In this document: positions 1,129 through 49,499 of the stretch, piece after piece
Position numbering within the stretch: position 1 is the stretch's first letter
How the letters are laid out: each line of letters opens with the position of its first letter
Assembly: GCA_000004695.1 (NCBI GenBank)
Contig: CM000154.2
Span: forward strand, 3,264,001-3,328,000
Reading direction: 5' to 3'
Source: Dictyostelium discoideum
Taxonomy: Eukaryota
Length of the DNA: 64,000 nucleotides
The notes under the pieces: generated by a model
Database searches by the model: none
Seen by the model: the letters and a program-made list of their open reading frames with translations, nothing else
What the model was told of the DNA's origin: nothing
Position numbers and translations under genes: made by a program

Positions 1129-1451
1129 TCCCATTTAACTACTCGGATTGTAATCTATTTAATAATTCATCATATTGCAAACACAGCAATAATTTTTAAT
1201 CCATAATACACTATATTTTAAAATTGAAATTAAATAACCCATAATGCACTATGTTTTAAAATTGAAACTCAAATATTAAACTATTAATTTATCTTTAATG
1301 GATAATAATAAACATACAATACATTGAGAAATCTATTGGATTAACACTGATTAAACAATATTATAAATAATATAATCAATTAAAACCAATATTTTATGAC
1401 AATCATTCTTTTTTCTGGATAAAGATATAAAACTTTATTTTGTTTAGATTA

Positions 1452-1878: not shown

Positions 1879-1911
<33 letters not shown>

Positions 1912-3137: not shown

Positions 3138-3737
3138 TTTAAAAATAATAAAAATAGAATTTTTTTTTTTTTTTTTATACTAAAAAAAAATTTTTTTTTT
3201 TTTTTTTTTTTGATTTTATAAATCTTTTAAAAACTGAAACGACTTTTTATAATAATAAAAAAAAAAAAAACGGTTTTAGATTTTAATTTTTAAAATATCT
3301 TTTTTTTTTTTGAAAATTTTATTTTATTTTTTTTTTTTTTTTTCAAAAAAATTTTCAATTATTAAATCTGGGGTGGTTAGGATATTTTTAAATTTATTAT
3401 TTATTTTTTACAATTAAACCAATATAATGAAAAAGAAATTAATAAATTAAAAAAAAAAAAAACAATACATTTTTTAGTATTCTTAAAAAATAAAATAAAA
3501 AAAAAAAAAATAAAAAAAAAAAAAATATGATATAATTTAAAAGGAGATGAAAAAAAAAAAGGAATAAAAAAAGAAAACGATAATAAAATTTTATTTAAAA
3601 TTAAAAGTTTATTTATTTATTCATTTATTTATGTATTATTAAAATCTAGTAATTTTTGGTCTTAAATGTTTTTTTAAAAAATTCAATTATCATAATTTTA
3701 ATAAAAAGAAAAACATAAATATATTAATAGATTTATT

Positions 3738-3850
3738 TTTATTTATATTTATATTTTTATTTATATTTTTATTTTTATTTTATTTTTATTTTTATTTTTA
3801 TTTTTATTTTTATATTTAAGTTTTTATTTTTATATTTAAGTTTTTATTTT
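3738..3850. repeat. Tandem (ATTTTT)n / 'tttatatttaag' minisatellite in an intergenic A/T desert
   Basis: Direct reading shows more than 12 consecutive 'attttt' units and a duplicated 25-bp 'tttttatttttatatttaag' block. Confidence 0.6.
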
Positions 3851-4014
3851 ATACTATTTTAAAATCAATTTTCATTTATTATTCACTATCATATTAATAT
3901 TCACTGTAATCCTCACCACCTCCACAGTGGTCATCATAATCTTCATCATAATCTTCATATTCTTGATCAAGATTTAAAAAATTTTGAATAAAATCTGAAT
4001 ATGAACGAGATATT

Positions 4015-5207
4015 TTATTTGCCTTTTTTTAATAATGTTTCAGATTTTTCTTTATTTTCATAACCTTTACAATTTAATAACATATCAGAGTAAGAAATAA
4101 TTGATTTGATAAAACTATATTTAACACCCAATTCGTAATAGTATTCACTCTTTTCTAAATCTATATCTATACCATCAATACCAAATTGAAATAAATAACC
4201 AAGTGAATTCAAAGACTCTAAAACATATATATTTGAATCTGTAAAGAATGAGCTATCACCATAATCATCTTGATCATCATCATCAAAATGAAGTGGTTTA
4301 AGACTTGCTTCATATAATAATGATAAACCAATGTTTGAATCTTTCTTTAATTTATCTACACCAACACCAATTAAATATAATGTTGAAAGATGAAAAAACC
4401 CATTTGATATATTACTTTCTTTAATTGATTTTGAAAAATATTTATATGCATTTCTATAATCTTCATATTCAAACATATACTCTTCACCAACATTATTTAA
4501 ATGATTAATTGTAATACGATTTTGACTTAAACTAGTTGAAATCATTTCTTCAACCATACCCAATTGATCGATTAGTATTGGTAAATAGCCTTTAAAGAAT
4601 GAATTGAATTTATGTTTTTCAATGAATAATTTAGCTTCATTTTCAAAGTTTCTAATATCACCAAATAAAGTTGAATTTCTATAATTCAATTTTTCATTTA
4701 CCAATTTTTTAAAATCAGTTACCTCTTTACATGATGGATTTAATTGATCAGCAGCTCCTAAAAATTGAATTGATTCATTATATTTTCCTTGAAATGATAA
4801 AATTTGAGATAATCTAAAATAACTACGATAAAACAATGGTGATTGTTTCATTGATTCAAATGAGTCAATTTTACTTTCTTCCAAGAGTGATCTAAATTCA
4901 TTTGGTTCAAAATTATTTAACTCTCTTGATAAATGCACTTTTTCATATCCTTTTAATGAACTTAACTTATAATATTCAAATTTTGAAATTGATCTATTTA
5001 AATAAAGTAATGATTTTAATTCACATAAATCCATACCACTTTTTTCAATTGGTGATTCTTTATTATAACCATTTAATTGATCAATACCCTTTGTATAATA
5101 TTCAATTGCTAAATTATAATTTTTTTTTGTATATTCAATATTACCAAGTTCTTTTAATTTAATTGATTCTTCAATTTTATTTTCTTTTTTTGTTGTGATT
5201 TTTGAGG

Positions 5208-5238
<31 letters not shown>

Positions 5239-5924
5239 ATTAGTGTTAGTTTTATTTGATAAATTTGATTTGGAATTTGGAATTTTATTAGTTGATTGTT
5301 GTGGTTTTTGAATATTTACTATATCCATAGTTTCAATTGATTGAATTGTATCTTCTAATTCACCTTTTAAATAATCATTCATTTCAATTAAAATATTAAT
5401 TAAATTTTGTTTTATATTTTTTAATTCACTTTCTTCAATTTTAAAATCTTTAATTAATATAACTTTTTTAAAAATTATAAAAAAAAAAAAAATATTGTTA
5501 ATTTTATAATTATTAATTTATTTTTAAAAGTAAATTAATTAATTAACTTACAATTATCATTAATTTGATTAATACTTGAAATTTGTTTATTTTCAAATGA
5601 TAATTTTTCTTTATCATTAATTTTGGTAAAATTGAAATTAATTAAAAGTGATGATAATAATTGTACATTGAAAGAATTGAGGTTTCCATTTGAAATAATA
5701 CTTTTTTGATAAAAATTATGGTCATTTGTTAAACAATTTGAATTGGTAAAGTGAGGATTCATACAAAGGAATTTATAAATTAACTCTCCATACTCTTTAC
5801 AATCTACCCAAGGTTTACCAATTTCAATTAACCAACGTTCTTTAAATTTATTTTCTAAAATTTGTTTAATCTTGATATTAATAATATTTGATAATTTAAA
5901 ATAATTAATAATATTATTTTTCAT
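4015..5924 (-). CDS. TPR-repeat protein, about 606 aa, two exons: complement(join(4015..5462,5552..5924)); the ORF-track entries 5535..5924 and 4015..5382 belong to one gene
   Basis: GATAATT|GTAAGT is the donor at 5551 and TAAAAAAG|TT the acceptor at 5463, with phase 1 matching on both sides. The splice joins MKNN...INDN to ...ILIKDFKIEESELKNIKQNLINILIEMNDYLKG in frame. TPR-like helices (LGNIEYTKKNYNLAIEYYTKGI) and a poly-Thr tract are present. Confidence 0.7.
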
Positions 5925-6256
5925 TTTTTTTTTTTTTTTTTTTTTTTTATTATTATTTATTAAGAAAGAGAGAGAGGGAGAGAATATATTTGTAAAAAAA
6001 AAAAAAAAGAGGAAATAATAATAATAAAAAAAAAAAAATTAAAAAATAAAAATACAAAAAAAAATAAAAAAAAAAAAAAAAAAAAAAAAGTGTTTTGAAC
6101 AACACCACATTTGGAAATTAAAAAAAAAAAAAAAATATAAAAAAAACAGTAATAACACATTTTTTTTTTTTGTTTTTTTTATTTTATACGAAAAAAAGTG
6201 CACTGAGAGTGAAATAAATAATGTTTTTTTTTTTGTTTTGCTTTTTTTTTTTTAGA

Positions 6257-9200
6257 TTAACCAAATTTTGGGAAATAATTCATTATTGTTTTCCAGTAAC
6301 TTTCTGGATGGGTTGAACAATGATTTTGATAAAAATGTATAAATAGTGTTCTAATTTGAGTAAGTCTTTGTTTTCTTCTTTCTTCAATCTCTTTGAAACT
6401 TAATGATTGACTATGATGACTATGTTGTTCATTTATATTTGATGTTGATTTTGATTTTTCATTATTATTATTATTTTGATTTTGATTTTGATTTTGATTT
6501 TGATTTTGATTTTGATTTTGATTTTGACCAACTTTATTAAGATTATTAATTTGATTTACTTTATTATTTGGTTGATTTTTGGTATTAATTTGATTTTTTA
6601 AAGTATCAAAATATTTATTTTCAAAAGAGAAAGCATTATCCCAACTTTGAGCTAAGCAATCACTATCATTATCTTCATCATCTGAAACCAATTTATGAGA
6701 TTTATCCTCTTCAGTCTCTTCACTTTGTTCACTACCAGTGAAACTACTAGATGGATGATAATTCTTTGGAGTTGAACCACCACCACTATTCAATGAACCA
6801 ATAATTCTTTTTTCAGTGAATGAACCCATCAATTGCCAACTACCACCAATTTCTGGTTCAACTTGAATATCATCATCTGATCCTCTTCTTCTCTTTGGTC
6901 CATTTGGTACATCCATTGGTATACTCGTACCTGAAGTTGCTGGTGATGTATGTAATTGGTGATGACCATGATGACCATGATGTCCATGATGTGATTGTTT
7001 AATCATAATAGATGATGATCCAAAACTACCAGCTATATTATTATTACTATTCATTGGTGAGTGAGAAATTGGTGTTGGCGGAGCTGATGTATTATTATTA
7101 TTGGTACTATTATTGGTACTATTATTGTTAGTGTTATTATTATTATTAAAATTATTATTATTATTATTATTACCAACTTTATTCATACCAATAAATAATT
7201 TTGGAGAATTATTTTGAGGAGTTACTGGTGCAGATTGAGAAATATCAATACCTTTTGTATTCCAACTACTTGGTGAAGAGTTTTTGTGTCCACCAATATT
7301 ACTATTATTATTACTATTTGATTTGTTTGATTTGTTTATATTTTTTACATTATTATTATTATTATTATTATTGTCTACAATATTTTTTCTATCTACATAA
7401 TTATTTACAATCTCTAATGGTTGTTGAGAATTTGAATTTTTACGATTACCAGTTGGAGTATTACCTTTATTATTTACAGATTGTTGTGATTGTGCTTGTT
7501 GTAACTGTTGTTTTAGTAATCCCATACCACTATTATTTGTAGTTTGTTGTTTTTCTTGTTGTTTATCTTGTTGTTTATCTTGTTGTTGTTGTTGATTTAA
7601 TTTATTAAAAGTATGAATTGAAAAATCCATTGAAGAGATGAAATCCAAGAAATAAAAACAGAAATAAAATATATCTTCACCTTTACCAGCTCTATCACAA
7701 AGTTGATGAGAGAATAAGAACCAATCGTAGGCAACCGTTAAAAAGAGCATTTCCCAATCCTTTAAAGATTGATGAACCTCACCATCAGCCCAAAGACTGA
7801 TTCTAAGTAATGAAATAAACAATGGTGTTCTATCCCATCCAGATATACAATGAACTAATAAACCAGATGGGTTATTATCATCAGATACATATTTTAATAA
7901 TAACTTGAAATAATTTTGTGTTAAATTTACTATTAAAAAGAGAAAAAAAAAAAAAAAAAATAATAGTTAATATATATCTATTTTTTTTTTATTTTTTTAT
8001 TTTTTAATATTAATATACTTACTTAAATCCCAAGTTTTATAAGATTCCCATGGTATCATTGGTAATTGATGATCTGGATGTAAATTTAATTCTGCTGGAT
8101 CTTCAATACCATCCCAAGAATAAAATAAATCTTTTCCACAATGTTGATTTCTATTAAAATCTGCAAAAAATTCTACACCAGGATAAGGAGTAGAAGAAAT
8201 TACAAAATCTTGATATCTTCGATGCATATCAACTTTTTCTGATGAACAAACAAAGAAACCAAACCTTTTTTTTTTTTTTTTAAAAAAATAAAAAATAAAA
8301 ATAAAGGTTAATGAAATTTGTTTTTATTATAATTATTATTATTATTTATTACTTACTTTTTCTTTTTATTTTCAACCATTAAATCACAAATGTATCTAAT
8401 ATTTAAATGTTTAATAACTAGAATATCATTATTTCTAAGATGTTCCATATCTAATTGTTGTTGTGCCTGTTGTTGTCGTATTTGAGTTGACTGTTGTTGT
8501 GCTTGTTGTTGATCATGTTGGCCTTCAACATGTGAATCATGATGTTGATAATGTTGATTAATAACTGAAGAAGTCATTGTACTATCATTTTTATTTAATC
8601 TATCAATATCAATTGAATCTTCAATCATACTATTAGTAATTGGATTATTTTGATTATTATTATTATTATTATTTTGATTATTATTATTATTATTAATTTG
8701 ATTATTATTATTATTTTGATTATTATTATTATTTTGATTATTATTATTATTACTAAACATTATAGATTGTGATAAAGAAGAAGTTGTTGGAGATGGAACA
8801 GAAGAAAATTGTTTTTTCATTGAATTAACACCAGATTGAAACATATATTCAATCTTTTGAGAGAGTGTTGAGGATCTACAAAGATTTTTATGATGATAAA
8901 ATATAACTGGAAATGGGAATCTTGTTCTTACACGTGCAAATCTAGATTGATCCAATAATTTTTCTAAATTACGAGAGAGTTCTGGATGAACGTGTTTATT
9001 CTTTTCTTTACATACTTTACATCCTGTCTCTAACTCGTGTTCAATAAAAATTAAATCTGGTGGGTATGTTGCGCATAATTCACCTTCTTTATTATTGATT
9101 AATGATATTTTATAATCTTTTTCAAATAATGTATTTACAATTTCTTGATATTTAAATAATTCCTTGTTTTTTTGTTTTGTTGTTGTTTTGTTTTAAATTA

Positions 9201-10463
9201 ATTAAATAATAAAAAAAAAAAAAAATTATTTAATATTAATATATATAATTATATAATATTAATAATAATTATTTTAAACTTACTTCATCTCTTTTACCAG
9301 GGAATGGTTGTTTATATCTTCTAAAATGAGCAAACATTTCGGCTAATTCAGATGCCAATGAATCACCACATGCAAGCGAGGGGTTAACTTCAAAAGAGTT
9401 CATTGTATTGGCATCGTTTGTCGTATTATCACCATTTGACGATATATCTTCAGAGACAACTATAGATGGTTCATCATCGTCATTGCTATTGATTGTGTTA
9501 TTATTATAGGAAACGAATTCTCTCTACTTATATTGCAAGTATTATTATTACTACTGCTGTCACTATTATTATTATTGTTTTTATTATTATTATTATTATT
9601 GTTATTATTATTATTATTACTGCTGCTGTTACTACTACTACCACTACTATCGTTTTCGACAGATTTTTTAGGGGATTGTGAACAAGGTGTATTTGAAGGC
9701 TTTATTGAAGAAATTAATTGTTCTGTTGTTGAGGATGGTGGTGTGCTAGAGGTAATTACCATTTTAATGGATTTGTTTTTTTAATGAGGTGAAAGTAATT
9801 GAGCGTATTCCTAGTGTGTGTCTTTTTTTTTTTTTTTTTTTTTTTTTTTNNNNNNNNNNNNNNNNNNNNNNNNNNNNNNNNNNNNNNNNNNNNNNNNNNN
9901 NNNNNNNNNNNNNNNNNNNNNNNNNNNNNNNNNNNNNNNNNNNNNNNNNTTCAAATAATGTATTTACAATTTCTTGATATTTAAATAATTCCTTGTTTTT
10001 TTGTTTTGTTGTTGTTTTGTTTTAAATTAATTAAATAATAAAAAAAAAAAAAAATTATTTAATATTAATATATATAATTATATAATATTAATAATAATTA
10101 TTTTAAACTTACTTCATCTCTTTTACCAGGGAATGGTTGTTTATATCTTCTAAAATGAGCAAACATTTCGGCTAATTCAGATGCCAATGAATCACCACAT
10201 GCAAGCGAGGGGTTAACTTCAAAAGAGTTCATTGTATTGGCATCGTTTGTCGTATTATCACCATTTGACGATATATCTTCAGAGACAACTATAGATGGTT
10301 CATCATCGTCATTGCTATTGATTGTGTTATTATTATTATTTGGTATTATTGGTGATATTGGACTTGGAATATCTTCATTGTTATTACTATTATTATTATT
10401 ATTATTATTTACATTTGGTTCATATGATACTTTTTTAAATTGCTTTGGTATATATGTATTTTC

Positions 10464-10505
<42 letters not shown>

Positions 10506-10958
10506 GTTATTGTTATTAGTACAATTATAGCTTTCATTTATTAAAATTTCGGATTTAGAATTTAATATCTCTTCATTTCTGCTGTTGTTATTATTATTGT
10601 CACAACTATTATTATTATTACTATTATTATAGGTTTCATTATTCTCTTCTACAGCAACTGCTTCTTCTAATGTTAAATCCATCATGAAAGGAAACGAATT
10701 CTCTCTACTTATATTGCAAGTATTATTATTACTACTGCTGTCACTATTATTATTATTATTATTGTTTTTATTATTATTATTATTATTATTATTGTTATTA
10801 TTATTATTATTATTATTACTGCTGTTACTACTACTACCACTACTATCGTTTTCGACAGATTTTTTAGGGGATTGTGAACAAGGTGTATTTGAAGGCTTTA
10901 TTGAAGAAATTAATTGTTCTGTTGTTGAGGATGGTGGTGTGCTAGAGGTAATTACCAT
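6257..10958 (-). CDS. Myotubularin-related phosphoinositide 3-phosphatase (CX5R active site HCISGWDRT), at least 4 exons: complement(join(6257..7929,8023..8238,8357..9162,[gap],10113..10958))
   Basis: Recalled MTM1 shows three collinear blocks: the catalytic loop VHCSDGWDRT vs LVHCISGWDRTPLFISLL here, the upstream block CETYP...SKFRSKGRFPVLSYYH vs CATYPPDL...SRFARVRTRFPFPVIFYHH here, and a downstream KDW...F.H block. All splice junctions (GTAAGT donors at 10112, 8356 and 8022; AG acceptors at 9163, 8239 and 7930) keep phase. There are very long N/Q-rich insertions. The 5' end passes through the 100-N gap and a duplicated segment (see findings). Confidence 0.75.
9121..9840 (-). pseudogene. Variant second copy of the myotubularin exon-2 5' end + intron 1 + exon 1, carrying a ~350-bp internal deletion that breaks the reading frame (ORF 9460..9762 ends ...FPIIITQSIAMTMMNHL*)
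   Basis: Positions 9121-9500 are essentially identical to 9950-10330 and 14881-15260. The copy then jumps to the equivalent of 10690 ('gattgtgttattattatag|gaaacgaattc'). It abuts the N-gap, so it may be a collapsed-repeat assembly artefact or a real tandem partial duplicate. Confidence 0.5.
9850..9949. other. Assembly gap (100 N)
   Basis: A run of exactly 100 'n' sits between poly-T at 9830-9849 and duplicated sequence that resumes at 9950. Confidence 0.99.
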
Positions 10959-11553
10959 TTTAATGGATTTGTTTTTTAATGAGGTGAAAGTAATTGAGCG
11001 TATTCCTAGTGTGTGTCTTTTTTTTTTTTTTTTTTTTTTTTTGGTTTTTTTTTTTTTTTAATTTATTTATTATTTTTTTTTTTTATTTTTTCTATTTTTT
11101 TTTATATTTTTTATTTTATTTTTTTTTTTTTTTATTTTGGTTTTTTTGAGTTTAACTTAATAAAAAAAAAAATAAAAAAAAATAAAAAAAAATAAAAAAT
11201 AAAAATTAAAAAAAAAAAAAAAAAAAAAAAAATAAAATAAAATAAAATAAAAAAAAAAATAAAGATAAACCTGAAAAAGAGAAATGATTATTTAAATATA
11301 CCTCTTTTTTTTTTAAGATTTAATTTTATATGTATTCAATATTTTTTATTTTAAAATTTAAATATCCATTTACAAACCAATTTTCAAAATTATTATTCAA
11401 GTTATCCAATAAAAATAGGCAATTTTCAATGACTAAAAAGGAAATACCATAAAGTTAAGATAGAATTAAATACATAATTAAGGAATTGATTTTTTTATTT
11501 TTTTTTTTTTTATTGGAATTGTTTAATTTAACCTAATGTTATTTTTCTGAATT

Positions 11554-13147
11554 CTATTTAATTATTTTTACATTTTTTGAAACATAAGGTTCAATTTGAT
11601 GTTTAAAACTTGTGAAAACTTTTACTTCCTTTACAGTATTAGGAATTGAACCAATTATTAATTCTTGTTTAATATCGCCTAAACGCAACGATTCAACACC
11701 ATCTGGTAATATACCTGGTGTTAATTTTTGATTGAATCCATCTTTTAAAGTAACACGAGTTACAGTATTAGGAATTGAACCAATTATTAATTCTTGTTTA
11801 ATATCGCCTAAATACAAGGATTTAACACCATCTGGTAATATACCTGGTGTTAATTTTTGATTGAATCCATCTTTTAAAGAGACAAGAGTTACAGTATTAG
11901 GAATTGAACCAATCATTAATTCTTGTTTAATATCGCCTAAATACAACAATTTAATACTATCTGGTAATATACCTGGTGTTAATTTTTGATTGAATCCATC
12001 CAATAAAGAGACATGAGTTACAGTATTAGGAATTGAACCAATCATTAATTCTTGTTTAATATCACCTAAATACAAGGATTTAACGCCATCTGGTAATATA
12101 CCAGGTGTTAATTTTTGATTGAATCTATCCAAGAGCATTACAGTAGATGGTAATTGATTTTTTAATTTTGATAAAATATTACAATTGTCTTTGAATGCTA
12201 TACCTTCATTCTCCTTAAATTTAAATGAATCATCCTCTATATAAACATAAAACTTTGAACTATCCCCTATATTTGGTAATTAGAATGATGTAAACATAAT
12301 TTATAAAAAAAACTGTATAAAGCTTACATTTAAAAAATTTATTTTTATTTTCATCGATTTCAATTATAAATCTACAATTATCTAAGGTATAAATTGATTT
12401 TAAATTATTTTTAATATCATCAATTATTTGATTATGGAAATGAATGATTTGATTATCGTATTCATTTAATTTATTTGAATTATTGATATTATTATTATTA
12501 TTTAATACTATTAATGATTGTTGATATTGTTTAATAATTTTAATTGTATCTCTATCAATAATAAAATCTTCTCCATTATCATAAATTTGTTGATCATTAA
12601 ATTTTATAATTTCATTTAATTTTTCAATAGTTGTAGTTCTATCATTTTCATTTTCATTATTATTATTAATTATAGTTGAAAGTATTTGATTATCATTATT
12701 GATTGAAGAAGTTATAATTGTATTTATTAATGTATTATTTTCAAAGGTTGTTTCTAATTGTTTTTTAATATCTAATTCTATGATTGAAATGATATCATGA
12801 ATTTTTTTAATTTCTTTTTTTAATGAATTATTATTAATATCAAATTGTGATTGAATTTCATTGTATTTATCATTTGATTCTTGTAATATTGTTTCATTGA
12901 TTTCTATTCTTTCAATTACTTTTTGGTATATATCATTTTTAAAATTATTCATTAATGAAAGAATATTTGAAGTTGATTCTAATGGATCAGTTTTATGACC
13001 ATGATGTTCACCTTTACTTGATGTACATTGAATACAACATGGTATTAATTTACAATCTAAACAAAAGAATACTATATCTTTATTTGGGTGAAGTGTACAC
13101 TTTTTATTATTATCAATATTATTTATTTTATTATGATTTGAAATCAT
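11554..13147 (-). CDS. B-box zinc finger + coiled coil + FNIP-repeat protein (cluster copy 1), about 510 aa: complement(join(11554..12266,12328..13147))
   Basis: The B-box motif is [36 protein letters not shown]. Splice AAAT|GTAAGC...CCAAATATAG|GG runs in phase 1 and creates Trp, joining the B-box exon to ...WDSSKFYVYIEDD...MLLDRFNQKLTPGILPDG. The second exon has about 7 FNIP repeats (FNQKLTPGILPxxVKxLxLGDIKQELIIGSIPNTVT). The start is probably the M of MISNHNK (13147); the longer ORF-track start reads through promoter poly-T. Confidence 0.8.
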
Positions 13148-13494
13148 TGTGTTTGGGATTGGTGTGGATGTAAAAAAAAAAAAAAAAAATTTGGAACCAG
13201 AAATTTTTATATGAGACACCAAAAATAAAAAAAAATAAAAAAAATAAAAATAAAATCGCTTAAAAAATTAAGAAAAACAAAATCTTTTTTTTTTTTTTTT
13301 TTTAAAAAATAAATAAATAATTAAATATTTATATTGTTATTGATAAAAATTTAAAAAAAGGAAAAATATTTTGAATTCAATCGTTAATCATTTTTTTTTT
13401 ATAAAAAAAAAAGATATAATTTAATTATATATACAATGTTTTTTAAATCTCTATTTTTGGAACATTTTAATAGTAAATTAAATTTAAATATGTT

Positions 13495-13575
13495 TGCTGA
13501 CATTAATATGGCTGCTGAAATTAATATGCATGTAAATTAATATGGATGCTAAAATTAATATGGGACACACTATTG
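13495..13575. repeat. Array of 4 tandem ~17-bp units '(c)tg(c/a)(t/a)aaattaatatgg' ending in '...atgggac'; a solo terminus related to the 18706-19322 palindromic element
   Basis: The units read ctgacattaatatgg / ctgctgaaattaatatgc / atgtaaattaatatgg / atgctaaaattaatatgggac. The same motif is the sub-terminal repeat of the TIR element at 19146-19322. The array lies about 350 bp upstream of gene copy 1. Confidence 0.4.
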
Positions 13576-13906
13576 GCAATTTTAAATCACTAAAAAATAT
13601 CATCATGGTACAGCGGATCAATTAAATGGATTTTGTAATTTGAGGGTAAAAACAAATTTACTCAAACCTGGAATTAAATATACCTAAACCCATTCAAATG
13701 TTACCATTTGACGCCATATGGTAGTAAACTACTATTAATCATATTGATTATTTTATTTAAATTTTCAATTAAAACATTACAATGAGCAGTTTTGCGATGA
13801 TTTGCTTTTTTAAAACTCTGTTGGAAAATTATTAATATTTATTATATTTGATGTTATTTCTTCATTTTATCTTGTTTTGTCATGATTAGTAGGTTGGCTG
13901 TACCTG

Positions 13907-14440
13907 TTAACAGTAGTTTCTTACACTCTTTACAGTATTAGGAATTGAACCAATCATTAATTCTTGTTTAATATCACCTAAATACAACCATTCAACACTA
14001 TCTGGTAATATACCTGGTGTTATTTTTTGATTGAATTCATTCAATAAAGAGACACTCGTTACAATATTAGGGATTGATCCAATCTCCAATTCTTGTTTAA
14101 TATCGCCTAAACTCAACCATTTAACACCAACTGGTAAAATGCCTGGTTTTAATCTTTGATTGAATCCATCCAATAAAGAGACATGAGCTACAGTATTAGG
14201 AATTGAGCCAATTATTAATTCTTGTTTAATATCACCTAAATACAAGGATTTAACACCAACTGGTAAAATGCCTGGTGTTAATTTTTGATTGAATCCATCC
14301 AATAGCATTACATTTGATGGTAATTGATTTTTTAATTTTGATGATGAAATATTACAATTGTCTTTGAATGCTATACCTTCATTCTCCTTAATTTTAAATG
14401 AATTACCCTCTATATAAATATAAAACTTTAAATTATCCCC
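13907..14440 (-). pseudogene. 5'-truncated FNIP-repeat exon fragment (about 4 repeats) with a diverged 3' end (...NTVKSVRNYC*)
   Basis: It is homologous to the exon-2 / intron / B-box-exon boundary of the intact copies up to 14440. There the sequence switches abruptly to myotubularin-derived sequence. Its 3' flank is shared with the degenerate fragment at 23845-23925. Confidence 0.6.
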
Positions 14441-14543
14441 TAATGTTGATTAATAACTGAAGAAGTCATTGTACTATCATTTTTATTTAATCTATCAATA
14501 TCAATTGAATCTTCAATCATACTATTAGTATTGGATTATTTTG

Positions 14544-14594
<51 letters not shown>

Positions 14595-15392
14595 TTGATT
14601 ATTATTATTATTTTGATTATTATTATTATTATTACTAAACATTATAGATTGTGATAAAATATAACTGGAAATGGGAATCTTGTTCTTACACGTGCAAATC
14701 TAGATTGATCCAATAATTTTTCTAAATTACGAGAGAGTTCTGGATGAACGTGTTTATTCTTTTCTTTACATACTTTACATCCTGTCTCTAACTCGTGTTC
14801 AATAAAAATTAAATCTGGTGGGTATGTTGCGCATAATTCACCTTCTTTATTATTGATTAATGATATTTTATAATCTTTTTCAAATAATGTATTTACAATT
14901 TCTTGATATTTAAATAATTCCTTGTTTTTTTGTTTTGTTGTTGTTTTGTTTTAAATTAATTAAATAATAAAAAAAAAAAAAAATTATTTAATATTAATAT
15001 ATATAATTATATAATATTAATAATAATTATTTTAAACTTACTTCATCTCTTTTACCAGGGAATGGTTGTTTATATCTTCTAAAATGAGCAAACATTTCGG
15101 CTAATTCAGATGCCAATGAATCACCACATGCAAGCGAGGGGTTAACTTCAAAAGAGTTCATTGTATTGGCATCGTTTGTCGTATTATCACCATTTGACGA
15201 TATATCTTCAGAGACAACTATAGATGGTTCATCATCGTCATTGCTATTGATTGTGTTATTATTATTATTTGGTATTATTGGTGATATTGGACTTGGAATA
15301 TCTTCATTGTTATTACTATTATTATTATTATTATTATTTACATTTGGTTCATATGATACTTTTTTAAATTGCTTTGGTATATATGTATTTTC

Positions 15393-15434
<42 letters not shown>

Positions 15435-16290
15435 GTTATTGTTATTAGTACAATTATAGCTTTCATTTATTAAAATTTCGGATTTAGAATTTAATATCTC
15501 TTCATTTCTGCTGTTGTTATTATTATTGTCACAACTATTATTATTATTACTATTATTATAGGTTTCATTATTCTCTTCTACAGCAACTGCTTCTTCTAAT
15601 GTTAAATCCATCATGAAAGGAAACGAATTCTCTCTACTTATATTGCAAGTATTATTATTACTACTGCTGTCACTATTATTATTATTATTATTGTTTTTAT
15701 TATTATTATTATTATTATTATTGTTATTATTATTATTATTATTATTACTGCTGTTACTACTACTACCACTACTATCGTTTTCGACAGATTTTTTAGGGGA
15801 TTGTGAACAAGGTGTATTTGAAGGCTTTATTGAAGAAATTAATTGTTCTGTTGTTGAGGATGGTGGTGTGCTAGAGGTAATTACCATTTTAATGGATTTG
15901 TTTTTTAATGAGGTGAAAGTAATTGAGCGTATTCCTAGTGTGTGTCTTTTTTTTTTTTTTTTTTTTTTTTTTGGTTTTTTTTTTTTTTTAATTTATTTAT
16001 TATTTTTTTATTTTATTTTTTCTATTTTTTTTTTATATTTTTTATTTAAATTTTTTTTTTTTTTTTTTTTTTTTATTTTGGTTTTTTTTGAGTTAAACTT
16101 AATAAAAAAAAAAAAAATAAAAAAAAAATAAAAAATAAAAATTAAAAAAAAAAAAAAAAAAAAAATAAAATAAAATAAAAAAAAAATAAAGATTAACCTA
16201 AAAAAAGAAATGATTATTTAAATATCCCTCTTTTTTTTTTTAAGATTTAATTTTATATGTATTCAATATTTTTTATTTTAAAATTTAAAT
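14441..16290 (-). pseudogene. Segmental duplicate of the myotubularin 5' region (part of exon 2 with a ~160-bp deletion, intron 1, complete exon 1 15042..15887, promoter), fused to FNIP sequence
   Basis: ORF 15027..15887 is 100% identical to 10098..10958. Positions 14455-14640 match 8561-8760 apart from poly-AAT length. The internal deletion is at 14660 ('gtgataaa|atataactgg'). The copy contains none of the catalytic exons. Confidence 0.65.
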
Positions 16291-16630
16291 ATGTTAAAAC
16301 ACTCTTTTTTTTTTTTTTTTTTTTTTTTTTTCAAGATTCAATTAAACACTGCCCTCTAAAGGAATAAAAGTAACAGTAATGTAAGTATTAAAAAAATTTT
16401 CAATATTATGCAAATTTCCATTATACTATCCTGATTTTTTTGAAATTTCAAAAAAAAAAAATATCTTTTTACAAATTATTATTCAAGTTATCTAATAAAA
16501 ATAGGCAATTTTCAATGACTAAAAAGGAAATACCATAAAGTTAAGATAGAATTTCCCAATTAAATACATAATTAAGGAATTGATTTTTTTTTTTTTTTTT
16601 TTTATTGGAATTGTTTAATTTAACCTAATG

Positions 16631-18518
16631 TTATTTTTCTGAATTCTTTTTAATTATTTTTACATTTTTTGAAACATAAGGTTCAATTTGATGTTTAAAA
16701 CTTGTGGAAACATTTACTTCCTTTACAGTATTAGGAATTGAACCAATTATTAATTCTTGTTTAATATCGCCTAAATTCAACGATTCAAAACCATCTGGTA
16801 ATATACCTGGTGTTAATTTTTGATTGAATCCATCTTCTAAAGTGACACGAGTTACAGTATTAGGAATTGAACCAATTATTAATTCTTGTTTAATATCACC
16901 TAAATCCAACGATTCAACACTATCTGGTAGAATACCTGGTGTTAATTTTTGATTGAATCCATCTTCTAAAGAGACATTCTTTACAGTATTAGGAATTGAA
17001 CCAATCATTAATTCTTGTTTAATATCACCTAAATCCAACGATTCAACACCTTCTGGTAGAATATCTGGTGTTAATATTTGATTGAATCCATCTTCTAAAG
17101 AGACAAGAGTTACAGTATTAGGAATTGAACCAATCATTAATTCTTGTTTAATATCACCTAAATACAACCATTTAACACTATCTGGTAATATACCTGGTGT
17201 TAATTTTTGATTGAATCCATCTTTTAAAGAGACAAGAGTTACAGTATTAGGAATTGATCCAATAATTAATTCTTGTTTAATATCACCAAAAAACAACCAT
17301 TCTACGCCATTTGGTAAAATACCTGGTGTCAATTTTTGATTGAATCCATCCAATAAAGAGACACGAGTTACAGTATTAGGAATTGAACCAATTATTAATT
17401 CTTGTTTAATATCACCTAAATACAAGGATTTAACGCCATCTGGTAATATACCAGGTGTTAATTTTTGATTGAATCCATCCAATAGCATTACATTTGATGG
17501 TAATTGATTTTTTAATTTTGATAAAATATTACAATTGTTTTTGAATGCTGTACCTTCATTCTCCTTAAATTTAAATGAATCACCCTCTATATAAACATAA
17601 AACTTTAAATTATCCCCTATATTTGGTTATTAGAATGATGTAAACATAATTTATAAAAAAAACTGTATAAAGCTTACATTCAAAAAATTCATTATTATTT
17701 TCATCGATTTCAATTTTAAATCTACAATTATCTAAGGTATAAATTGATTTTAAATTATTTTTAATATCATCAATTATTTGATTATGGAAATGAATGATTT
17801 GATTATCATATTCATTTAATTTATTTGAATTATCGATATTATTATTATTATTTAATACTATTAATGATTGTTGATATTGTTTAATAATTTTAATTGTATC
17901 TCTATCAATAATAAAATCTTCTCCATTATCATAAATTTGTTGATCATTAAATTTTATAATTTCATTTAATTTTTCAATGGTTGTAATTCTATCATTTTCA
18001 TTTTCATTTTCATTTTCATTTTTATTATTTTTATTATTAATTATAGTTGAAAGTATTTGATTATCATTATTGATTGAAGAAGTTATAATTGTATTTATTA
18101 ATGTATTATTTTCAAAGGTTTTTTCTAATTGTCTTTTAATATCTAATTCTATGATTGAAATGATGTCATGAATTTTTTTAATTTCTTTTCTTAATGAATT
18201 ATTATTATTATCAAATTGTGATTGAATTTCATTGTATTTATCATTTGATTCTTGTAATATTGTTTCATTGATTTCTATTCTTTCAATTACTTTTTGATAT
18301 ATATCATTTTTAAAATTATTCATAAATGAAAGAATATTTGAAGTTGATTCTAATGGATCAGTTTTATGACCATGATGTTCACCTTTACTTGATGTACATT
18401 GAATACAACATGGTATTAATTTACAATCTAAACAAAAGAATACTATATCTTTATTTGGGTGAAGTGTACATTTTATATTATTATCAATATTATTTATTGT
18501 ATTATGATTTGATACCAT
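16631..18518 (-). CDS. B-box + FNIP-repeat protein (cluster copy 3), about 608 aa, about 9 FNIP repeats: complement(join(16631..17616,17678..18518))
   Basis: The architecture and the phase-1 intron (GAAT|GTAAGC...ATATAG|GG) match copy 1. The ORF is intact, but the usual 5' flank is replaced from 18531 by foreign sequence. Confidence 0.8.
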
Positions 18519-18705
18519 TGTGTTTGGGATTGGTGTGGATGTATTGAGAACCGGTTCTCAATCAATCGCACAACCTATTTATCAAACTAATCAAGGTATA
18601 AAAATGCAACTATAAATGTTACTATGTAAATACAACCATTCAACACTATCTGGTAATATATGTGGTGTTAGTTTTTGATTGAATCCATTTTTTAAATAGA
18701 CATGT

Positions 18706-19322
18706 GTCCCATGCCAAAATAAAACGAAACTTCATCTGTTAGTAACAAAAGAGTAAGCAGAAGAGTCAATAATTAAAATAAAAAATATTATTTTAATTTT
18801 TTTTTTTTTTTTTTTTTTTTATTTTTTTTTATTTTTTTTTATTTTTAATTTTTTATTTATAATTTTTTTTTTTTGTGAGCCGGCTAGACATAAATGAATA
18901 ATAAAAAAATATATACCAACTAAAAAAAAAAGAAATGAAAATAAATTATAAAATTAATAATAAAAATAAAAAGATAAAAATAAATAAAAGATATAAATAA
19001 AATAATATGAAAATTTTTTTTTTTTTTTTTATATTATTATAATTATTTTTTTTTAGTTGATATATATTTTTTTAATAATAATTTTAGTGCTAAAATTTTG
19101 TTTATATTTGAGATGATTATTAATTAAATGACTTTGACTTTTTTTTTTTTTCTATGCCAAAATTACCATATTAATTTCAGCAGCCATATTAATTTCGGCA
19201 GCTATGTACATGCTGAAATTAATATGGCTGCTGAAATTAATACGGTAATTTTGGCAGACGTAAGTCCCATGCCAAAATTAATATGGCTGCTGAAATTAAT
19301 ATGGTAATTTTGGCATGGGACA
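18706..19322. mobile_element. About 620-bp non-autonomous palindromic (MITE-like) element bounded by 15-bp TIRs GTCCCATGCCAAAAT / ATTTTGGCATGGGAC, with nested sub-terminal hairpins
   Basis: The left TIR is at 18706-18720, inserted into an FNIP-homologous fragment (18630-18705). The right TIR is at 19308-19322. 19143-19262 and 19265-19322 are near-perfect hairpins built from 'gctgaaattaatatgg' units. No ORF lies inside. Confidence 0.45.
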
Positions 19323-19949
19323 AATAAATAAGGAATAAATTATTTAAAAAAAATAAAAATTCTTATATTTTAATATTTTTTATTTAAATATTTATTGTAC
19401 ACCCATTATTTTTTATCATTTTATTATAGTTTTTAATAATATACAATATCATATATTAAACTATAATTTAATGTTTTAAAAAATGAGAAATTACAATAGT
19501 ATTATTTCCTATTAATTGTTGTATATTATTAAATTATAGTTTTATGTTTTAAAAAATGAGAAATTACAATAGTATATTGTGGTAAATCAATAAATTTTTT
19601 ATAATTTAATGACAAATTAATATTCAATTTTAATTAAATAATTTTAGATTTTATCAATTTTTAATTTATTAAAATATATTTTTATTATGGCCAGATTCTT
19701 TTTTATTATTTTATGATAATGTGTGATTAATTATTAATTAGAAATTGATATTAGTTTGTTAAAAATTTTATTACATTATAATATCGTTTCTTAAAATATG
19801 AGTTTTTGCGGTAGTTTAATTTCTCACAAAATAGTAAAATTTCTTAGGTTTTTTTTCTCTGGTGAATACATAATTAAGGAATTGATTTTTTTTTTTTTTT
19901 TTTTTTTATTGGAATTGTTTAATTTAACCTAATGTTATTTTTCTGAATT

Positions 19950-22900
19950 CTATTTAATTATTTTTACATTTTTTGAAACATAAGGTTCAATTTGATGTTT
20001 AAAACTTGTGGAAACATTTACTTCCTTTACAGTATTAGGAATTGAACCAATTATTAATTCTTGTTTAATATCGCCTAAATTCAACGATTCAACACCATCT
20101 GGTAATATACCTGGTGTTAATTTTTGATTGAATCCATCTTCTAAAGTGACACTCTTTACAGTATTAGGAATTGAACCAATTATTAATTCTTGTTTAATAT
20201 CACCTAAATCCAACGATTCAACACTATCTGGTAGAATACCTGGTGTTAATTTTTGATTAAATCCATCTTCTAAAGAGACATGAGTTACAGTATTAGGAAT
20301 TGAACCAATCATTAATTCTTGTTTAATATCACCTAAATACAACGATTCAACACCTTCTGGTAGAATACCTGGTGTTAATTTTTGATTGAACCTATCTTCT
20401 AACGAGACATTCGTTACAGTATTAGGAATTGAACCAATTATTAATTCTTGTTTAATATCGCCTAAATACAACAATCCAACACTTTCTGGTAATATACGTG
20501 GTGTTAATTTTTGATTGAATCCATCTTTTAAAGAGACACTCGTTACAGTATTAGGAATTGAACCAATTATTAATTCTTGTTTAATATCACCTAAATACAA
20601 CAATCCAACACTTTCTGGTAAAATACCTGGTGTTAATATTTGATTGAATCCATCTTCTAAAGAGACAAGAGTTACAGTATTAGGAATTGAACCAATCATT
20701 AATTCTTGTTTAATATCACCTAAATACAACAATTTAACACTATCTGGTAATATACCTGGTGTTAATTTTTGATTGAATCCATCTTTTAAAGAGACAAGAG
20801 TTACAGTATTAGGAATTGATCCAATAATTAATTCTTGTTTAATATCACCTAAATCCAACAATTTAATACTATCTGGTAATATACCTGGTGTTAATTTTTG
20901 ATTGAATCCATCTTTTAAAGTGACACGAGTTACAGTATTAGGAATTGAACCAATCATTATTTCTTGTTTAATATCACCTAAATACAACCATTCAACACTA
21001 TCTGGTAAAATACCTGGTGTTAATTTTTGATTGAATCTATCCAATAAAGAGATATGAGTTACAGTATTAGGAATTGAACCAATCATTAATTCTTGTTTAA
21101 TATCACCTAAATGCAACAATTTAACACTATCTGGTAATATACATGGTGTTAATTTTTGATTGAATCCATCTTTTAAAGAGACACGAGTTACAGTATTAGG
21201 AATTGAACCAATTATTAATTCTTGTTTAATATCGCCTAAATCCAACAATTTAATACTATCTGGTAATATACCTGGTGTTAATTTTTGATTGAATTCATCT
21301 TTTAAAGATACACGAGTTACAGTATTAGGAATTGAACCAATCATTATTTCTTGATTAATATCACCTAAATACAACCATTCAACACTATCTGGTAATATAC
21401 CTGGTGTTAATTTTTGATTGAATCCATCTTTTAAAGAGACAAGAGTTACAGTATTAGGAATTGAACCAATTATTAATTCTTGTTTAATATCACCTAAATA
21501 CAAGGATTTAACACCATCTGGTAATATACCTGGTGTTAATTTTTGATTGAATCCATCTTTTAAAGAGACATGGATTACAGTATTAGGAATTGAACCAATC
21601 ATTAATTCTTGTTTAATATCACATAAATCCAACAATTTAATACTATCTGGTAATATACCTGGGGTTAATTTTTGATTGAATCTATCCAATAAAGAGATAT
21701 GAGTTACAGTATTAGGAATTGAACCAATTATTAATTCTTGTTTAATATCGCCTAAATCCAACAATTTAATACTATCTGGTAATATACCTGGTGTTAATTT
21801 TTGATTGAATTCATCTTTTAAAGATACATGAGTTACAGTATCAGGAATTGAACCAATTATTAATTCTTGTTTAATATCACCTAAATACAAGGATTTAACA
21901 CAATATGGCAATATACCTGGTGTTAATTTTTGATTGAATCTATCCAATAAAGAGATATGGATTACAGTATTAGGAATTGAACCAATCATTAGTTCTTGTT
22001 TAATATCACCTAAATACAAGGATTTAATACTATCTGGTAATATGCATGGTGTTAATATTTGATTGAATCCATCCAATAAAGAGACATGGATTACAGTATT
22101 AGGAATTGAACCAATTATTAATTCTTGTTTAATATCACCTAAATACAAGGATTCAACGCCATCTGGTAATATACCAGGTGTTAATTTTTGATTGAATCCA
22201 TCCAATAGCATTACAGTTGATGGTAATTGATTTTTTAATTTTGATAAAATATTACAATTGTTTTTGAATGCTGTACCTTCATTCTCCTTAAATTTAAATG
22301 AATTACCCTCTATATAAACATAAAACTTTAAATTATCCCCTATATTTGGTAATTAGAATGATGTAAACATAATTTATAAAAAAAACTGTATAAAACTTAC
22401 ATTTAAAAAATTTATTATTATTTTCATCGATTTCAATTATAAATCTACAATTATTTAAGAAATAAATTGATTTTAAATTATTTTTAATATCATCAATTAT
22501 TTGATTATGGAAATGAATGATTTGATTATCGTTTTCATTTAATTTATTTGAATTATTGATATTATTATTATTATTTAATACTATTAATGATTGTTGATAT
22601 TGTTTAATAATTTTAATTGTATCTCTATCAATAATAAAATCTTCTCCATTATCATAAATTTGTTGATCATTAAATTTTATAATTTCATTTAATTTTTCAA
22701 TAGTTGTAGTTCTATCATTTTCATTTTCATTATTATTATTAATTATAGTTGAAAGTATTTGATTATCATTATTGATTGAAGAAGTTATAATTGTATTTAT
22801 TAATGTATTATTTTCAAAGGTTGTTTCTAATTGTTTTTTAATATCTAATTCTATGATTGAAATGATATCATGAATTTTTTTAATTTCTTTTTTTAATGAA

Positions 22901-23220
22901 TTATTATTAATATCAAATTGTGATTGAATTTCATTGTATTTATCATTTGATTCTTGTAATATTGTTTCATTGATTTCTATTCTTTCAATTACTTTTTGAT
23001 ATATATCATTTTTAAAATTATTCATTAATGAAAGAATATTTGAAGTTGATTCTAAGGGATCAGTTTTATGACCATGATGTTCACCTTTACTTGATGTACA
23101 TTGAATACAACATGGTATTAATTTACAATCTAAACAAAAGAATACTATATCTTTATTTGGGTGAAGTGTACATTTTATATTATTATCAATATTATTTATT
23201 GTATTATGATTTGATACCAT
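19950..23220 (-). CDS. B-box + FNIP-repeat protein (cluster copy 4), about 1,069 aa with about 24 FNIP repeats: complement(join(19950..22339,22401..23220))
   Basis: The B-box exon and the intron (AAAT|GTAAGT...ATATAG|GG, phase 1) are the same as in copies 1 and 3. Exon 2 is a single 2.39-kb open frame of near-identical 96-nt FNIP units. Confidence 0.8.
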
Positions 23221-23626
23221 TTTGTTTGGGGTTAATGTTGATTTAAAAAAAAAAAAAATTTGTTTTCGGAAATTTTTATATGAGACTTAATCCACCACCA
23301 AAAATCAAAAAAAAAAAATAAAAATAAAATCACTTAAAAAATTAAGAAAAAAAAAAACAAAATCATTTTTTTTTTTTATAATATTATTATTAAATAATTA
23401 AATAATTAAATATTTTTATTATTATTGATAATTTTTTGAAAAAAAAGAAAAATATTTTGAGTTAAATAATTAATCATTTTTTTTTATAAAAAAAAAAAGA
23501 TATTGCAACAAGATCTCAAAAATATCTTGTTAATACTAACATTTATTTAATTTCATGAAATGTTCTAAATTTAATTTTCAAAAAAAAAAAAAAAAATTTT
23601 TAATTATAATTTCAATTTCACAATAG

Positions 23627-23830: not shown

Positions 23831-23924
23831 AATTATTGTAAAATATTTGATGTTATTTCTTCATTTTATCTTGTTTTGCCATATGATTAGTGGGTTGGTT
23901 GTACCTGTTAATGGTAGTTTCTTG

Positions 23925-25311
23925 AATAGGAAATTCTTCTCATTCTCTGGTAGTGATAGCATTTTCTGGTAAAATATCTGGTGTTAATTTTTGATTGAAT
24001 CCTTCTAATAAAAAGATATTCGTTACAGTATTAGGTATTGAACCAATTATTAATTCTTGTTTGATATCACCTAAATCCAATGATCCAACACTATCTGGTA
24101 ATATACCTGGTGTTAATTTTTGATTAAATCCATCTTCTAAAGTGACATTCATTACAGTATTAGGAATTGAACCAATTATTAATTCTTTTTTAATATCACC
24201 TAAATACAACCATTCAACACCATCTGGTAATATACCTGGTGTTAATTTTTGATTGAATCATCTTTTAAAGAGACAAGAGTTGCACTATCAGGAATTGAAC
24301 CAATCATTAATTCTTGTTTAATATCATACAAATGCAAACATTTAACACTATTTGGTAATATACCTGGTGTTAATTTTTGATTGAATCCATCCAATAAATC
24401 GACATTCGTTACAGTATTAGGAATTGAACCAATCTCTTATTCTTGTTTAATGTCACCTAAATACAATGAACCAAGACGATTTGGTAATATACCTGGTGTT
24501 AATTTTTGATTGAATCCATCTAGTAAAGAGATACTCGTTACAGTATTAGGAATTGAACCAATTATTAGTTCTTGTTTAATATCACCTAAATACAAAGATT
24601 TAACACCAACTGGTAAAATGCCTGGTGTTAATATTTGATTGAATCCATCCAATAGCATTACACGTGATGGTAATTGATTTTTTAATTTTGATAAAATATT
24701 ACAATTGTTTTTGAATGCTATATCTTCATTCGTCTTAAATTTAAATGAATCACCCTCTATATAAACATGAAACTTTGAATTATCCCCTATATTTGATAAT
24801 TAGAATGATGTGAACATAATTTATAAAAAACTGACTAAAGCTTACATTCAAAAAATTTATTATTATTTTCATCGATTTCAATTTTAAATCTACAATTATC
24901 TAAGGTATAAATTGATTTTAAATTATTTTTAATATCATCAATTATTTCATTATGGAAATGAATGATTTGATTATCGTATTCATTTAATTTATTTGAATTA
25001 TTGATATTATTATTATTATTTAATACTATTAATGATTGTTGATATTGTTTAATAATTTTAATGGTATCTCTATCAATAATAAAATCTTCTCCATCATTTT
25101 CATTTTCATTTTTACTACTACTATTGCCAACATTATTTTGCGATGCATCATTGGTGGCATTAGTAGTTGTAGTTGTAGTGGTAGTTGAATCGATGTTTTT
25201 AAGTTTGGAACTGATATCAGAATGTTCATCAATGGATGGATGTATAAATGATTGAATTTGAAAAAGATTATCTGCTATTGGTCTTTCTTCAAGTTGTGAT
25301 TTATCAATATA

Positions 25312-25368
<57 letters not shown>

Positions 25369-25841
25369 GTTGAAAGTATTTGATTATCATTATTGATTGA
25401 AGAAGTTATAATTGTATTTATTAATGTATTATTTTCAAAGGTTGTTTCTAATTGTTTTTGAATATCTAATTCTACGATTGAAATGATATCATGAATTTTT
25501 TTAATTTCTTTTTTTAATGAATTATTATTAATATCAAATTGTGATTGAATTTCATTGTATTTATCATTTGATTGTTTTAATATTGTTTCATTGATTTCTA
25601 TTCTTTTAATTACTTTTTGATGTACATCATCTTTAAAATTATTCATTAATGAAAGAATATTTGAAGTTGATTCTAATGGATCAGTTTTATGATCATGATG
25701 TTCACCTTTACTTGATGTACATTGAATACAACATGGTATTAATTTACAATCTAAACAAAAGAATACTATATCTTTGTTTGGGTGAAGTGTACACTTTTTA
25801 TTACTATCAATATTATTTATTTTGTTATGATTGGGTGCCAT
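23925..25841 (-). pseudogene. Degenerate fifth B-box/FNIP copy: frameshifted FNIP fragments (23940..24209, 24437..24658) and a B-box exon disrupted by a unique ~230-bp insertion and an (AAT)n expansion (25300-25370)
   Basis: The B-box motif is intact at 25700-25800. The coiled-coil part is interrupted at 25090-25320, and a poly-Ile readthrough '[10 protein letters not shown]' replaces the normal sequence. Several FNIP units have indels ('gattgaatca tcttttaaag'). Confidence 0.6.
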
Positions 25842-26072
25842 TGTGTTTGGAATTAATGTCGATATTAAAAAAAAAAAAAATTAAAATTTTGTAAAAAAAA
25901 AAAAAATTAAAAAAAACACTTAAAAAATTAAGAAAAAAAACAAAATCTTGCATGGGCTATATTAATTTTTTTAATCAATCCACCAGTTTTTATTGTTCTG
26001 ATATAAAATAAAAAGGATTAAAAATATTTCTTTTTTTTTATTTATTTCCTATATACCATTTTTTATTCTTTT

Positions 26073-26203: not shown

Positions 26204-26241
<38 letters not shown>

Positions 26242-49455: not shown

Positions 49456-49499
<44 letters not shown>

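Follow-up and report, generated by a model that had tools for sequence, protein, structure and literature searches.

The joint at positions 14440|14441 of a 64,000-nucleotide stretch of Dictyostelium discoideum chromosome 5 (GenBank assembly GCA_000004695.1, contig CM000154.2, positions 3,264,001 to 3,328,000 of the forward strand; hereafter the window, with a G+C content of 22.9%) is a genuine, heritable and non-homologous breakpoint, which connects the remnant of a lost FNIP-family gene, FNIPx, to a truncated copy of a gene encoding an MTMR14-like myotubularin. We are highly confident that it is a real, lineage-specific and non-coding duplication breakpoint. The chimera lies among genes that all occupy the minus strand and follow each other from left to right as MTMR14-like gene, FNIP1, chimera, FNIP2, FNIP3 and FNIP4. 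An earlier reading of the letters (the original prediction) had proposed a chimeric junction with microhomology between an FNIP gene with a B-box exon and a myotubularin fragment.

The switch between the two templates is abrupt

The elements that meet at the breakpoint are:
14425–14460, no strand: junction; FNIP-derived up to 14440 (C), TA at 14441–14442 common to both sides, unambiguously MTMR14-derived from 14443.
13907–14439, minus strand: FNIPx, remnant of a lost FNIP-family gene; complete exon 2 with an open frame from 14449 to 13910 and a stop codon at 13909–13907.
13844–13922, minus strand: FNIPx 3' flank; homologous to the FNIP4 3' flank at 23843–23923 (91%, BLAST).
14441–14651, minus strand: MTMR14-derived exon-2 segment; equals parent 8549–8769 apart from indels of 1, 12 and 3 bp and two mismatch calls, all in an AAT tract.
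14652–15265, minus strand: MTMR14-derived 5' part of exon 2, intron 1 and 3' part of exon 1; 100% identical to parent 8894–9507.
15618–15972, minus strand: 5' part of the MTMR14-derived exon 1 and leader; ATG at 15887, and the substitution-free tract ends near here (parent ~11040).
15973–16466, no strand: intergenic segment; collinear with parent 11043–11380 and diverged (A/T substitutions, indels of 103/107 and 52 bp), an older homology.

In a six-way alignment, positions 14380–14440 of the chimera track all four FNIP genes (from 12209 in FNIP1, 17560 in FNIP2, 22282 in FNIP3 and 24737 in FNIP4) to the motif TATCCCC, and from 14441 the chimera is identical to the MTMR14-like gene from 8549 (TAATGTTGATTAATAACTGAAG...). 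An intact FNIPx would be expected to read …TATCCCCTATATTTGGTAATTAG… instead. The switch is abrupt rather than gradual, and no extra bases that could represent a templated insertion lie between the two templates in the alignment. Read on the coding (minus) strand, the end of the FNIP intron is ...AAATATAG|GGGATA, so the break leaves 1–3 nt of intron, including the acceptor AG, on exon 2.

The two templates read ...CCCC[TA]TATTTGG in the FNIP genes and ...GTTGA[TA]ATGTTG in the MTMR14-like gene, and their overlap is confined to the bracketed TA. Of the two overlaps that had been put forward, 'ta' is therefore correct and 'cccta' is not, the parent having ...gttgata at this place. We also place the start of the parental match at 8549 instead of 8550, and FNIP1 reads 'ctatcccc' rather than 'aattatcccc'. 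The chimeric nature of the joint is upheld by the alignment, by self-BLAST identity beyond the joint and by a second assembly described below, and the FNIP exon 2, intron and B-box exon are confirmed as its left template by the alignment, Pfam and spliced models. The overlap had been regarded as typical of microhomology-mediated end joining (MMEJ), for which it is not diagnostic. Among 200,000 simulated joints of random window positions, 46% had an overlap of 0 bp, 29% of 1 bp and 14.5% of 2 bp, and 25% had one of at least 2 bp. A 2-bp TA in a genome with 77% A+T matches chance and is uninformative on the joining pathway.

Left of the joint, FNIPx is without its intron (save the nucleotides at the joint), its B-box exon and its promoter. 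Its exon 2 frame is still open over 180 codons and carries strong FNIP repeats (PF05725 in 13910–14449; E=4.6e-35, 119.9 bits against a cutoff of 21, three matched stretches). FNIPx is 87–90% identical to all other FNIP copies over ~510–525 bp (BLAST), and 91–96% identical over the proximal 140 nt of exon 2. As its 3' flank matches that of FNIP4, FNIPx is not truncated at the 3' end. The intact exon 2 is consistent with recent orphaning.

Right of the joint, self-BLAST aligns 8549–8776 with 14441–14658 at 93%, the differences being indels and two mismatch calls in AAT repeat tracts, and 8894–9507 with 14652–15265 at 100% over 614 bp, which is far more than chance would give; 9950–11365 and 14879–16292 are 97.3% identical (self-BLAST and global alignment). 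Collinearity extends into the FNIP genes (11381–12129 with 16467–17221, and 11629–13172 with 16979–18543), and the whole collinear block pairs 8549–13172 with 14441–18543. The copy corresponds to parent 8549 to ~11040 and takes in the promoter region, exon 1 with intron 1, and about the first 205 codons of exon 2; its donor boundary in the parent is 8548|8549. It lacks the catalytic exon, as it ends at parent 8549 and the CX5R motif lies at ~7880. The term 'myotubularin fragment' was accordingly right as to the type of gene and incomplete as to extent, since the fragment reaches the promoter region and runs collinearly into FNIP2. Two copies longer than 1 kb are present, as in a segmental duplication (8549–9507 plus 10337–~11040 against 14441–~15970), and their boundary is sharp, FNIP identity stopping at 14440–14442 and MTMR14 identity beginning at 14441.

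The copy is DNA-mediated. We considered a retrocopy or processed pseudogene and ruled it out: intron 1 and upstream promoter sequence are kept, and there is neither a poly(A) tail nor a target-site duplication.

The parent gene is of the MTMR14 type

The donor of the copied tract is:
6257–10958, minus strand: parent MTMR14-like gene; VHCISGWDRT active-site motif in the 3' exon, and an uninterrupted 1188-aa product called in GCA_054883475.1.

A protein search with the catalytic exon returned 704 matches at E<=1e-10, and nearly all of the listed ones that carried a name were MTMR14 proteins, which had ~70% identity over the core and in many cases PF06602. This homology and the CX5R phosphatase motif confirm the parent as an MTMR14-type myotubularin. 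The same search returned no entry from the same species, and Pfam gave no match on single MTMR14 exons. A search with the duplicated exon 1 (846 nt, followed by a phase 0 intron 1 in the parent) returned only a 43%-identical D. purpureum protein.

An independent assembly reproduces the joint and corrects the reference

The same locus was reached via DDB_G0289849 in GCA_054883475.1 (CM142511.1, 3352591–3374184; L002 below), where it contains no Ns. The new Dictyostelium genomes are de novo Nanopore and Illumina assemblies (PMC12745789). The junction 30-mer is also present in L002, at R12877, with the same flanks, and megablast aligns positions 8403–13712 of the reverse complement (L002rc) with window 9950–15265 at 99.85%, straight through the junction. 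We therefore exclude an artefact of cloning or assembly, the second assembly having been made de novo and independently.

AT-rich Dictyostelium DNA is, as a matter of general knowledge, unstable in E. coli, and the reference is indeed mis-assembled both 4.6 kb away from the joint and inside the copy, with a false gap and swapped sequence (9508–9847 and 15266–15617). A chimeric shotgun clone or mis-joined AX4 repeats could in principle have produced the joint on such grounds. We nevertheless give this origin a negligible probability, as the exact junction, its flanks and a 124-bp deletion in the copy recur in the independent long-read assembly, which resolves the gap differently and hence was not copied from the reference.

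The two misplaced segments of the reference are:
9508–10336, no strand: reference artefact in the parent gene; 9508–9847 is copy-type (100% identical to the L002 copy), 9850–9949 is a false gap and 9950–10336 repeats 9121–9507.
15266–15617, minus strand: parent-type exon-1 sequence misplaced in the fragment; absent from the L002 copy, which has a 352-bp deletion there.

The parent gene contains 100 Ns at 9850–9949, flanked by 387 bp that are 100% identical (9121–9507 and 9950–10336). Megablast equates L002rc 1–8789 with window 706–9507, L002rc 13099–14052 with window 8894–9847 (100% over 954 bp) and L002rc 13713–21594 with window 15618–23524. It follows that the true parent reads from 9507 directly to 10337, that 9508–9847 is exon 1 of the fragment and that 15266–15617 is parent sequence. 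In the reference, the fragment thus looks more complete than it really is. The original prediction missed both the false gap and the swap, as a result of which the window misrepresents both copies. The AX4 chromosome 5 gap in the MTMR14-like gene can be closed by joining 9507 to 10337 and moving 9508–9847 to the fragment, and this correction at 9508–10336 and 15266–15617 is the most useful by-product of the analysis. The false gap may explain the lack of a reference-strain protein for the MTMR14-like gene in the collection searched.

Divergence drops to zero in the MTMR14-derived tract

Two deletions distinguish the copy from its parent, and both shift the frame. The first removed 124 bp (parent 8770–8893) and is flanked by the 7-bp direct repeat TGATAAA, one copy of which is retained at 14652–14658; in the same simulation of random joints, an overlap of at least 7 bp had a chance of ~0.3%. 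The second, of 352 bp in exon 1 of the true copy in L002, is blunt. Without masking, these two deletions, small indels and a few mismatch calls, all in microsatellite tracts, are the only differences between copy and parent in L002.

We counted divergence between the true parent and the true copy within L002, after masking homopolymers and microsatellites and excluding columns near gaps. Mismatches amounted to 0/830 in the MTMR14-derived part, 10/124 in the intergenic part, 31/806 in the FNIP 3' end and exon 2, and 14/777 in the FNIP intron and exon 1. At the level of the FNIP flank as a whole (45/1583, or 2.8%), zero mismatches in 830 positions would have a probability of ~e^-23. Identity gives way to divergence near parent 11040, at a long run of T that lies ~80 bp ahead of the MTMR14 ATG.

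FNIP1 and FNIP2 are 97.4% identical in exon 1, compared with 98.5% for FNIP1 and FNIP3. As FNIP1 is no closer to FNIP2 than to FNIP3, the FNIP portion of the block reflects older paralogy within the family; the MTMR14 tract alone is young or homogenised.

We also examined a simple head-to-tail tandem duplication and rejected it. The segment 13173–14440 has no collinear counterpart after 18543, where the sole recurring elements are a 32-nt repeat motif and a generic FNIP unit, in an order that does not fit a tandem duplication; furthermore, FNIP2 and FNIP1 are 2.6% apart, as against 0% for the MTMR14 part.

No fusion reading frame crosses the joint

The joint does not create a fusion open reading frame (ORF), and what it has left is a pseudogene of chimeric structure. 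After ...SSVINQH the MTMR14 frame meets a TAG formed across the joint (14442–14440), and the FNIP frame is offset by +1. In the true copy of L002 both exons are out of frame, exon 1 through the 352-bp deletion and exon 2 through the 124-bp deletion. The FNIP intron is in phase 1 and the donor of MTMR14 intron 1 in phase 0, so exon skipping would not restore the frame.

The annotation of GCA_054883475.1 calls a 450-aa product over the joint (L002 7628–9447, corresponding to window ~13701–15887, minus strand). An exhaustive search with up to five canonical GT-AG introns of at least 40 nt found no 450-aa ORF between the annotated start and stop, and we found no matching or identical protein on record. 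The 450-aa model is probably an ab initio annotation artefact, and flagging it is of practical value.

This called product is one of four observations that would favour a functional fusion gene born by exon shuffling, in which the MTMR14 promoter and N-terminal exon drive the FNIP repeats via the retained acceptor; the others are (i) that the FNIP acceptor AG is kept within 1–3 nt of the break, (ii) that the FNIP exon 2 ORF is intact and (iii) that a copied MTMR14 promoter region is present. Such a gene is very improbable in view of the two frameshifting deletions, the TAG at the joint, the mismatched intron phases, the failure of every canonical intron chain to yield 450 aa and the missing protein match. 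We attach just as little weight to a more speculative version, in which a joint at most 3 nt from the FNIP acceptor would have been selected or used as an exon capture: transcripts from the MTMR14 promoter would be spliced into FNIP exon 2, and non-canonical or alternative splicing would bypass the frameshifts, giving a lineage-specific transcript or protein.

Age of the joint and a proposed repair-copy mechanism

The joint is common to the AX4 reference and to the second lab-strain assembly, so it is older than their separation. The only outgroup compared was the syntenic locus of the sister lineage D. cf. discoideum (GCA_054859235.1), which is 86–91% identical to the window. This locus extends from MTMR14 exon 1, across five FNIP genes, as far as the unique genes of window 26–31 kb; MTMR14 occurs just once, at the array edge, in a gene with a 1230-aa product, and no MTMR14 sequence lies inside its ~15-kb FNIP array. 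The fragment and its joint therefore arose after the split from D. cf. discoideum, or were lost there.

We propose that a single recent event of ectopic repair synthesis, resembling synthesis-dependent strand annealing (SDSA) or break-induced replication (BIR), with homology at one end and end-joining at the other, would account for the chimera. A break between FNIPx exon 2 and the FNIP2 3' flank would have allowed the FNIP2-side end to invade intergenic sequence upstream of MTMR14, to which it was related by an older homology of ~96% similarity. Synthesis would then have proceeded leftward through the MTMR14 promoter, exon 1, the intron and part of exon 2, until the nascent strand left its template at 8549. 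End-joining with an overlap of 2 bp would have connected this strand to the resected end of FNIPx, so that the copied tract replaced the FNIPx intron, B-box exon and promoter. Identity that reaches a non-homologous joint is what would be expected if copying and joining were one event, and repair synthesis of low processivity would account for a copy that differs by deletions and repeat-length changes only. Taken as one statement, the observed facts and this one-step mechanism, the latter being inferred, have in our estimation a slightly better than even probability.

Several points weigh against this proposal. The mechanism is read back from the end product alone, and to call the event recent relies on sequence identity. 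For the proposal to hold, the FNIP2 3' flank and the sequence upstream of MTMR14 must already have been homologous before the event, up to within ~80 bp of the MTMR14 ATG; this in turn implies an earlier duplication, whose own boundary is not visible. Divergence sets in at the long T homopolymer, where the alignment is uncertain, and the deletions could equally be later. The same pattern would result from an older duplication and a subsequent conversion of the copy by the parent gene, provided that the conversion tract reaches the joint. Finally, GCA_054883475.1 would be strain AX2-214, to judge from its N50 of 5.3 Mb and its 99.6–100% identity to the window.

The older duplication would have involved a block made up of the MTMR14 5' part, the intergenic sequence and FNIP, copied at about the time at which FNIP1, FNIP2 and FNIP3 diverged and forming the joint then; gene conversion by the parent and the 124- and 352-bp deletions would have come later. 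The collinearity of 8549–13172 with 14441–18543 agrees with this course of events, as do the 2–4% divergence of the intergenic and FNIP parts beside an identical MTMR14 part and the mosaic similarity among FNIP1, FNIP2 and FNIP3, which shows that conversion or recombination is active in the array. We hold it to be possible, albeit rather unlikely, because the conversion tract must cover the whole ~1.66-kb segment up to the joint and leave no diverged residue: in the 90 unique bases beside the joint, ~3 differences would be expected at 3% and none is seen. It further requires two large deletions and several repeat changes to have accumulated with zero substitutions, and the ORF of FNIPx exon 2 is still intact.

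The joint might otherwise be the scar of a deletion, if a larger or complete second MTMR14 gene once stood between FNIPx and FNIP2 and sequence from the FNIPx intron into exon 2 of that gene was lost, with the ends joined. The locus is deletion-prone, to go by the 124- and 352-bp losses, an 84-bp FNIP remnant at 18624–18707 and the lost ancestral upstream region of FNIP2, and the 2-bp overlap fits a deletion joint equally well. This origin is improbable: it requires an additional, unobserved intermediate, deletion alone leaves the zero divergence of the MTMR14 part unexplained, and the sister lineage has no second MTMR14 copy.

The distal boundary and neighbouring genes

At its far end, the collinear block stops at a conspicuous sequence:
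18543–18562, no strand: distal end of collinearity (13172/18543), 25 nt before the start codon of FNIP2; marked by a palindrome of 20 nt, ATTGAGAACCGGTTCTCAAT, which is perfect and unique in the window.

FNIP2 leaves the upstream consensus of FNIP1, FNIP3 and FNIP4 exactly at this palindrome, which may be a snap-back templated insertion or the footprint of a hairpin. Further upstream of FNIP2, the 84-bp FNIP-repeat remnant is up to 93% identical to FNIP3 units and is the relic of a further destroyed FNIP gene. It is followed by a ~630-bp element (18706–19321) between inverted copies of GTCCCATGCCAAAAT, with an internal 46-nt hairpin (19155–19256, 96% complementary) and GGCTGCTGAAATTAATATG repeats; the element looks like the miniature inverted-repeat transposable element (MITE) type, and a related fragment lies at 13495–13570, between FNIP1 and FNIPx.

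The other members of the FNIP array are:
11554–13147, minus strand: FNIP1, which is DDB_G0289849 of D. discoideum AX4; spliced 510-aa product, 100% identical to P0122.
16631–18518, minus strand: FNIP2; intact B-box and FNIP gene, spliced to 608 aa, with a 608-aa gene also called in L002.
19950–23220, minus strand: FNIP3; B-box and FNIP-repeat gene.
~23957–25949, minus strand: FNIP4; B-box and FNIP-repeat gene, apparently disrupted.

The gene number of FNIP1 agrees with chromosome 5, to which numbers in this range belong. Pfam confirmed the FNIP and B-box domains of the FNIP-family genes. FNIP4 is the most diverged copy (92–93% in exon 1). Some 188 codons into exon 1, a long run of the (ATT)n type interrupts its frame and gives poly-isoleucine and then a stop; it is possibly a pseudogene.

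Four further loci reached via FNIP-family matches (L003, L004, L006 and L007) are paralogous arrays, DUF4419 clusters among others, and none is syntenic. Exact-product look-up of the contiguous ORFs 13907–14308 (beside the joint), 4015–5382 and 26235–27248 gave no match, because the annotated products are spliced. We found no tRNA genes in window 1–27000, no Rfam families in the region and no literature on the neighbouring gene identifiers.

Two observations concern the remainder of the window. A non-LTR (long terminal repeat) retrotransposon ORF (RVT_1, Exo_endo_phos; 1596-aa product) adjoins the region at the left edge of the window, below ~1 kb (L002 21299–21594). A tandem pair of ORFs occupies 49344–52141 and 53385–56171; each encodes 769 aa with a ricin-B-lectin domain, the pair shares 90% identity over 2.8 kb, and one of the two is matched exactly in GCA_054883475.1.

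Comparison with known systems and significance

The chimera shares with segmental-duplication breakpoints two very highly identical copies longer than 1 kb, an abrupt joint with 0–3 bp of overlap, a truncated copy that is without the catalytic part, lineage specificity and a position within a tandem gene-family array. It departs from them in its very small size (a young tract of ~1.2–1.7 kb), in lying just ~3 kb from its source, with FNIP1 and FNIPx in between, and in having one end apparently resolved in pre-existing homology, with no second novel joint. Coupled homologous and non-homologous break repair, in which one end invades an ectopic homologue and the other is end-joined, is described in mammalian cells and yeast. 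It likewise leaves one sharp joint with minimal overlap and an opposite boundary hidden in homology, and a tract of 1–2 kb replaces resident sequence; here, in contrast, such a process would be read from the end product, in which the break, the polarity and the enzymes are not visible.

As regards MMEJ or polymerase-theta-mediated end joining (TMEJ), the 124-bp deletion with its 7-bp direct repeat is typical of MMEJ or replication slippage, and the distal 20-nt palindrome resembles a snap-back templated insertion, whereas the overlap of 2 bp at 14440|14441 is at chance level (P=0.25) and comes with no templated insertion. The AX4 chromosome 2 duplication, a large lab-strain duplication of D. 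discoideum, is mentioned in PMC12745789. Such duplications arose in the same organism and are likewise a source of structural change, but they are strain-specific and span hundreds of kb, whereas the event described here involves ~2 kb and is common to both lab-strain assemblies. Retrocopies resemble the fragment in being truncated, non-functional gene copies and differ from it in the features that excluded them above.

In summary, the joint reflects the ordinary duplication and decay of a tandem gene family, and is evidence neither of MMEJ nor of a fusion protein. It exemplifies the routine decay of such arrays: local copying destroyed one FNIP/B-box gene and left behind a non-functional piece of a gene for a phosphoinositide phosphatase. 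Present in lab strains and not in the sister lineage, the joint is a clean and datable structural marker; its distribution among wild isolates could reveal which of two processes, ectopic repair-copying or gene conversion, prevails in this very AT-rich genome.

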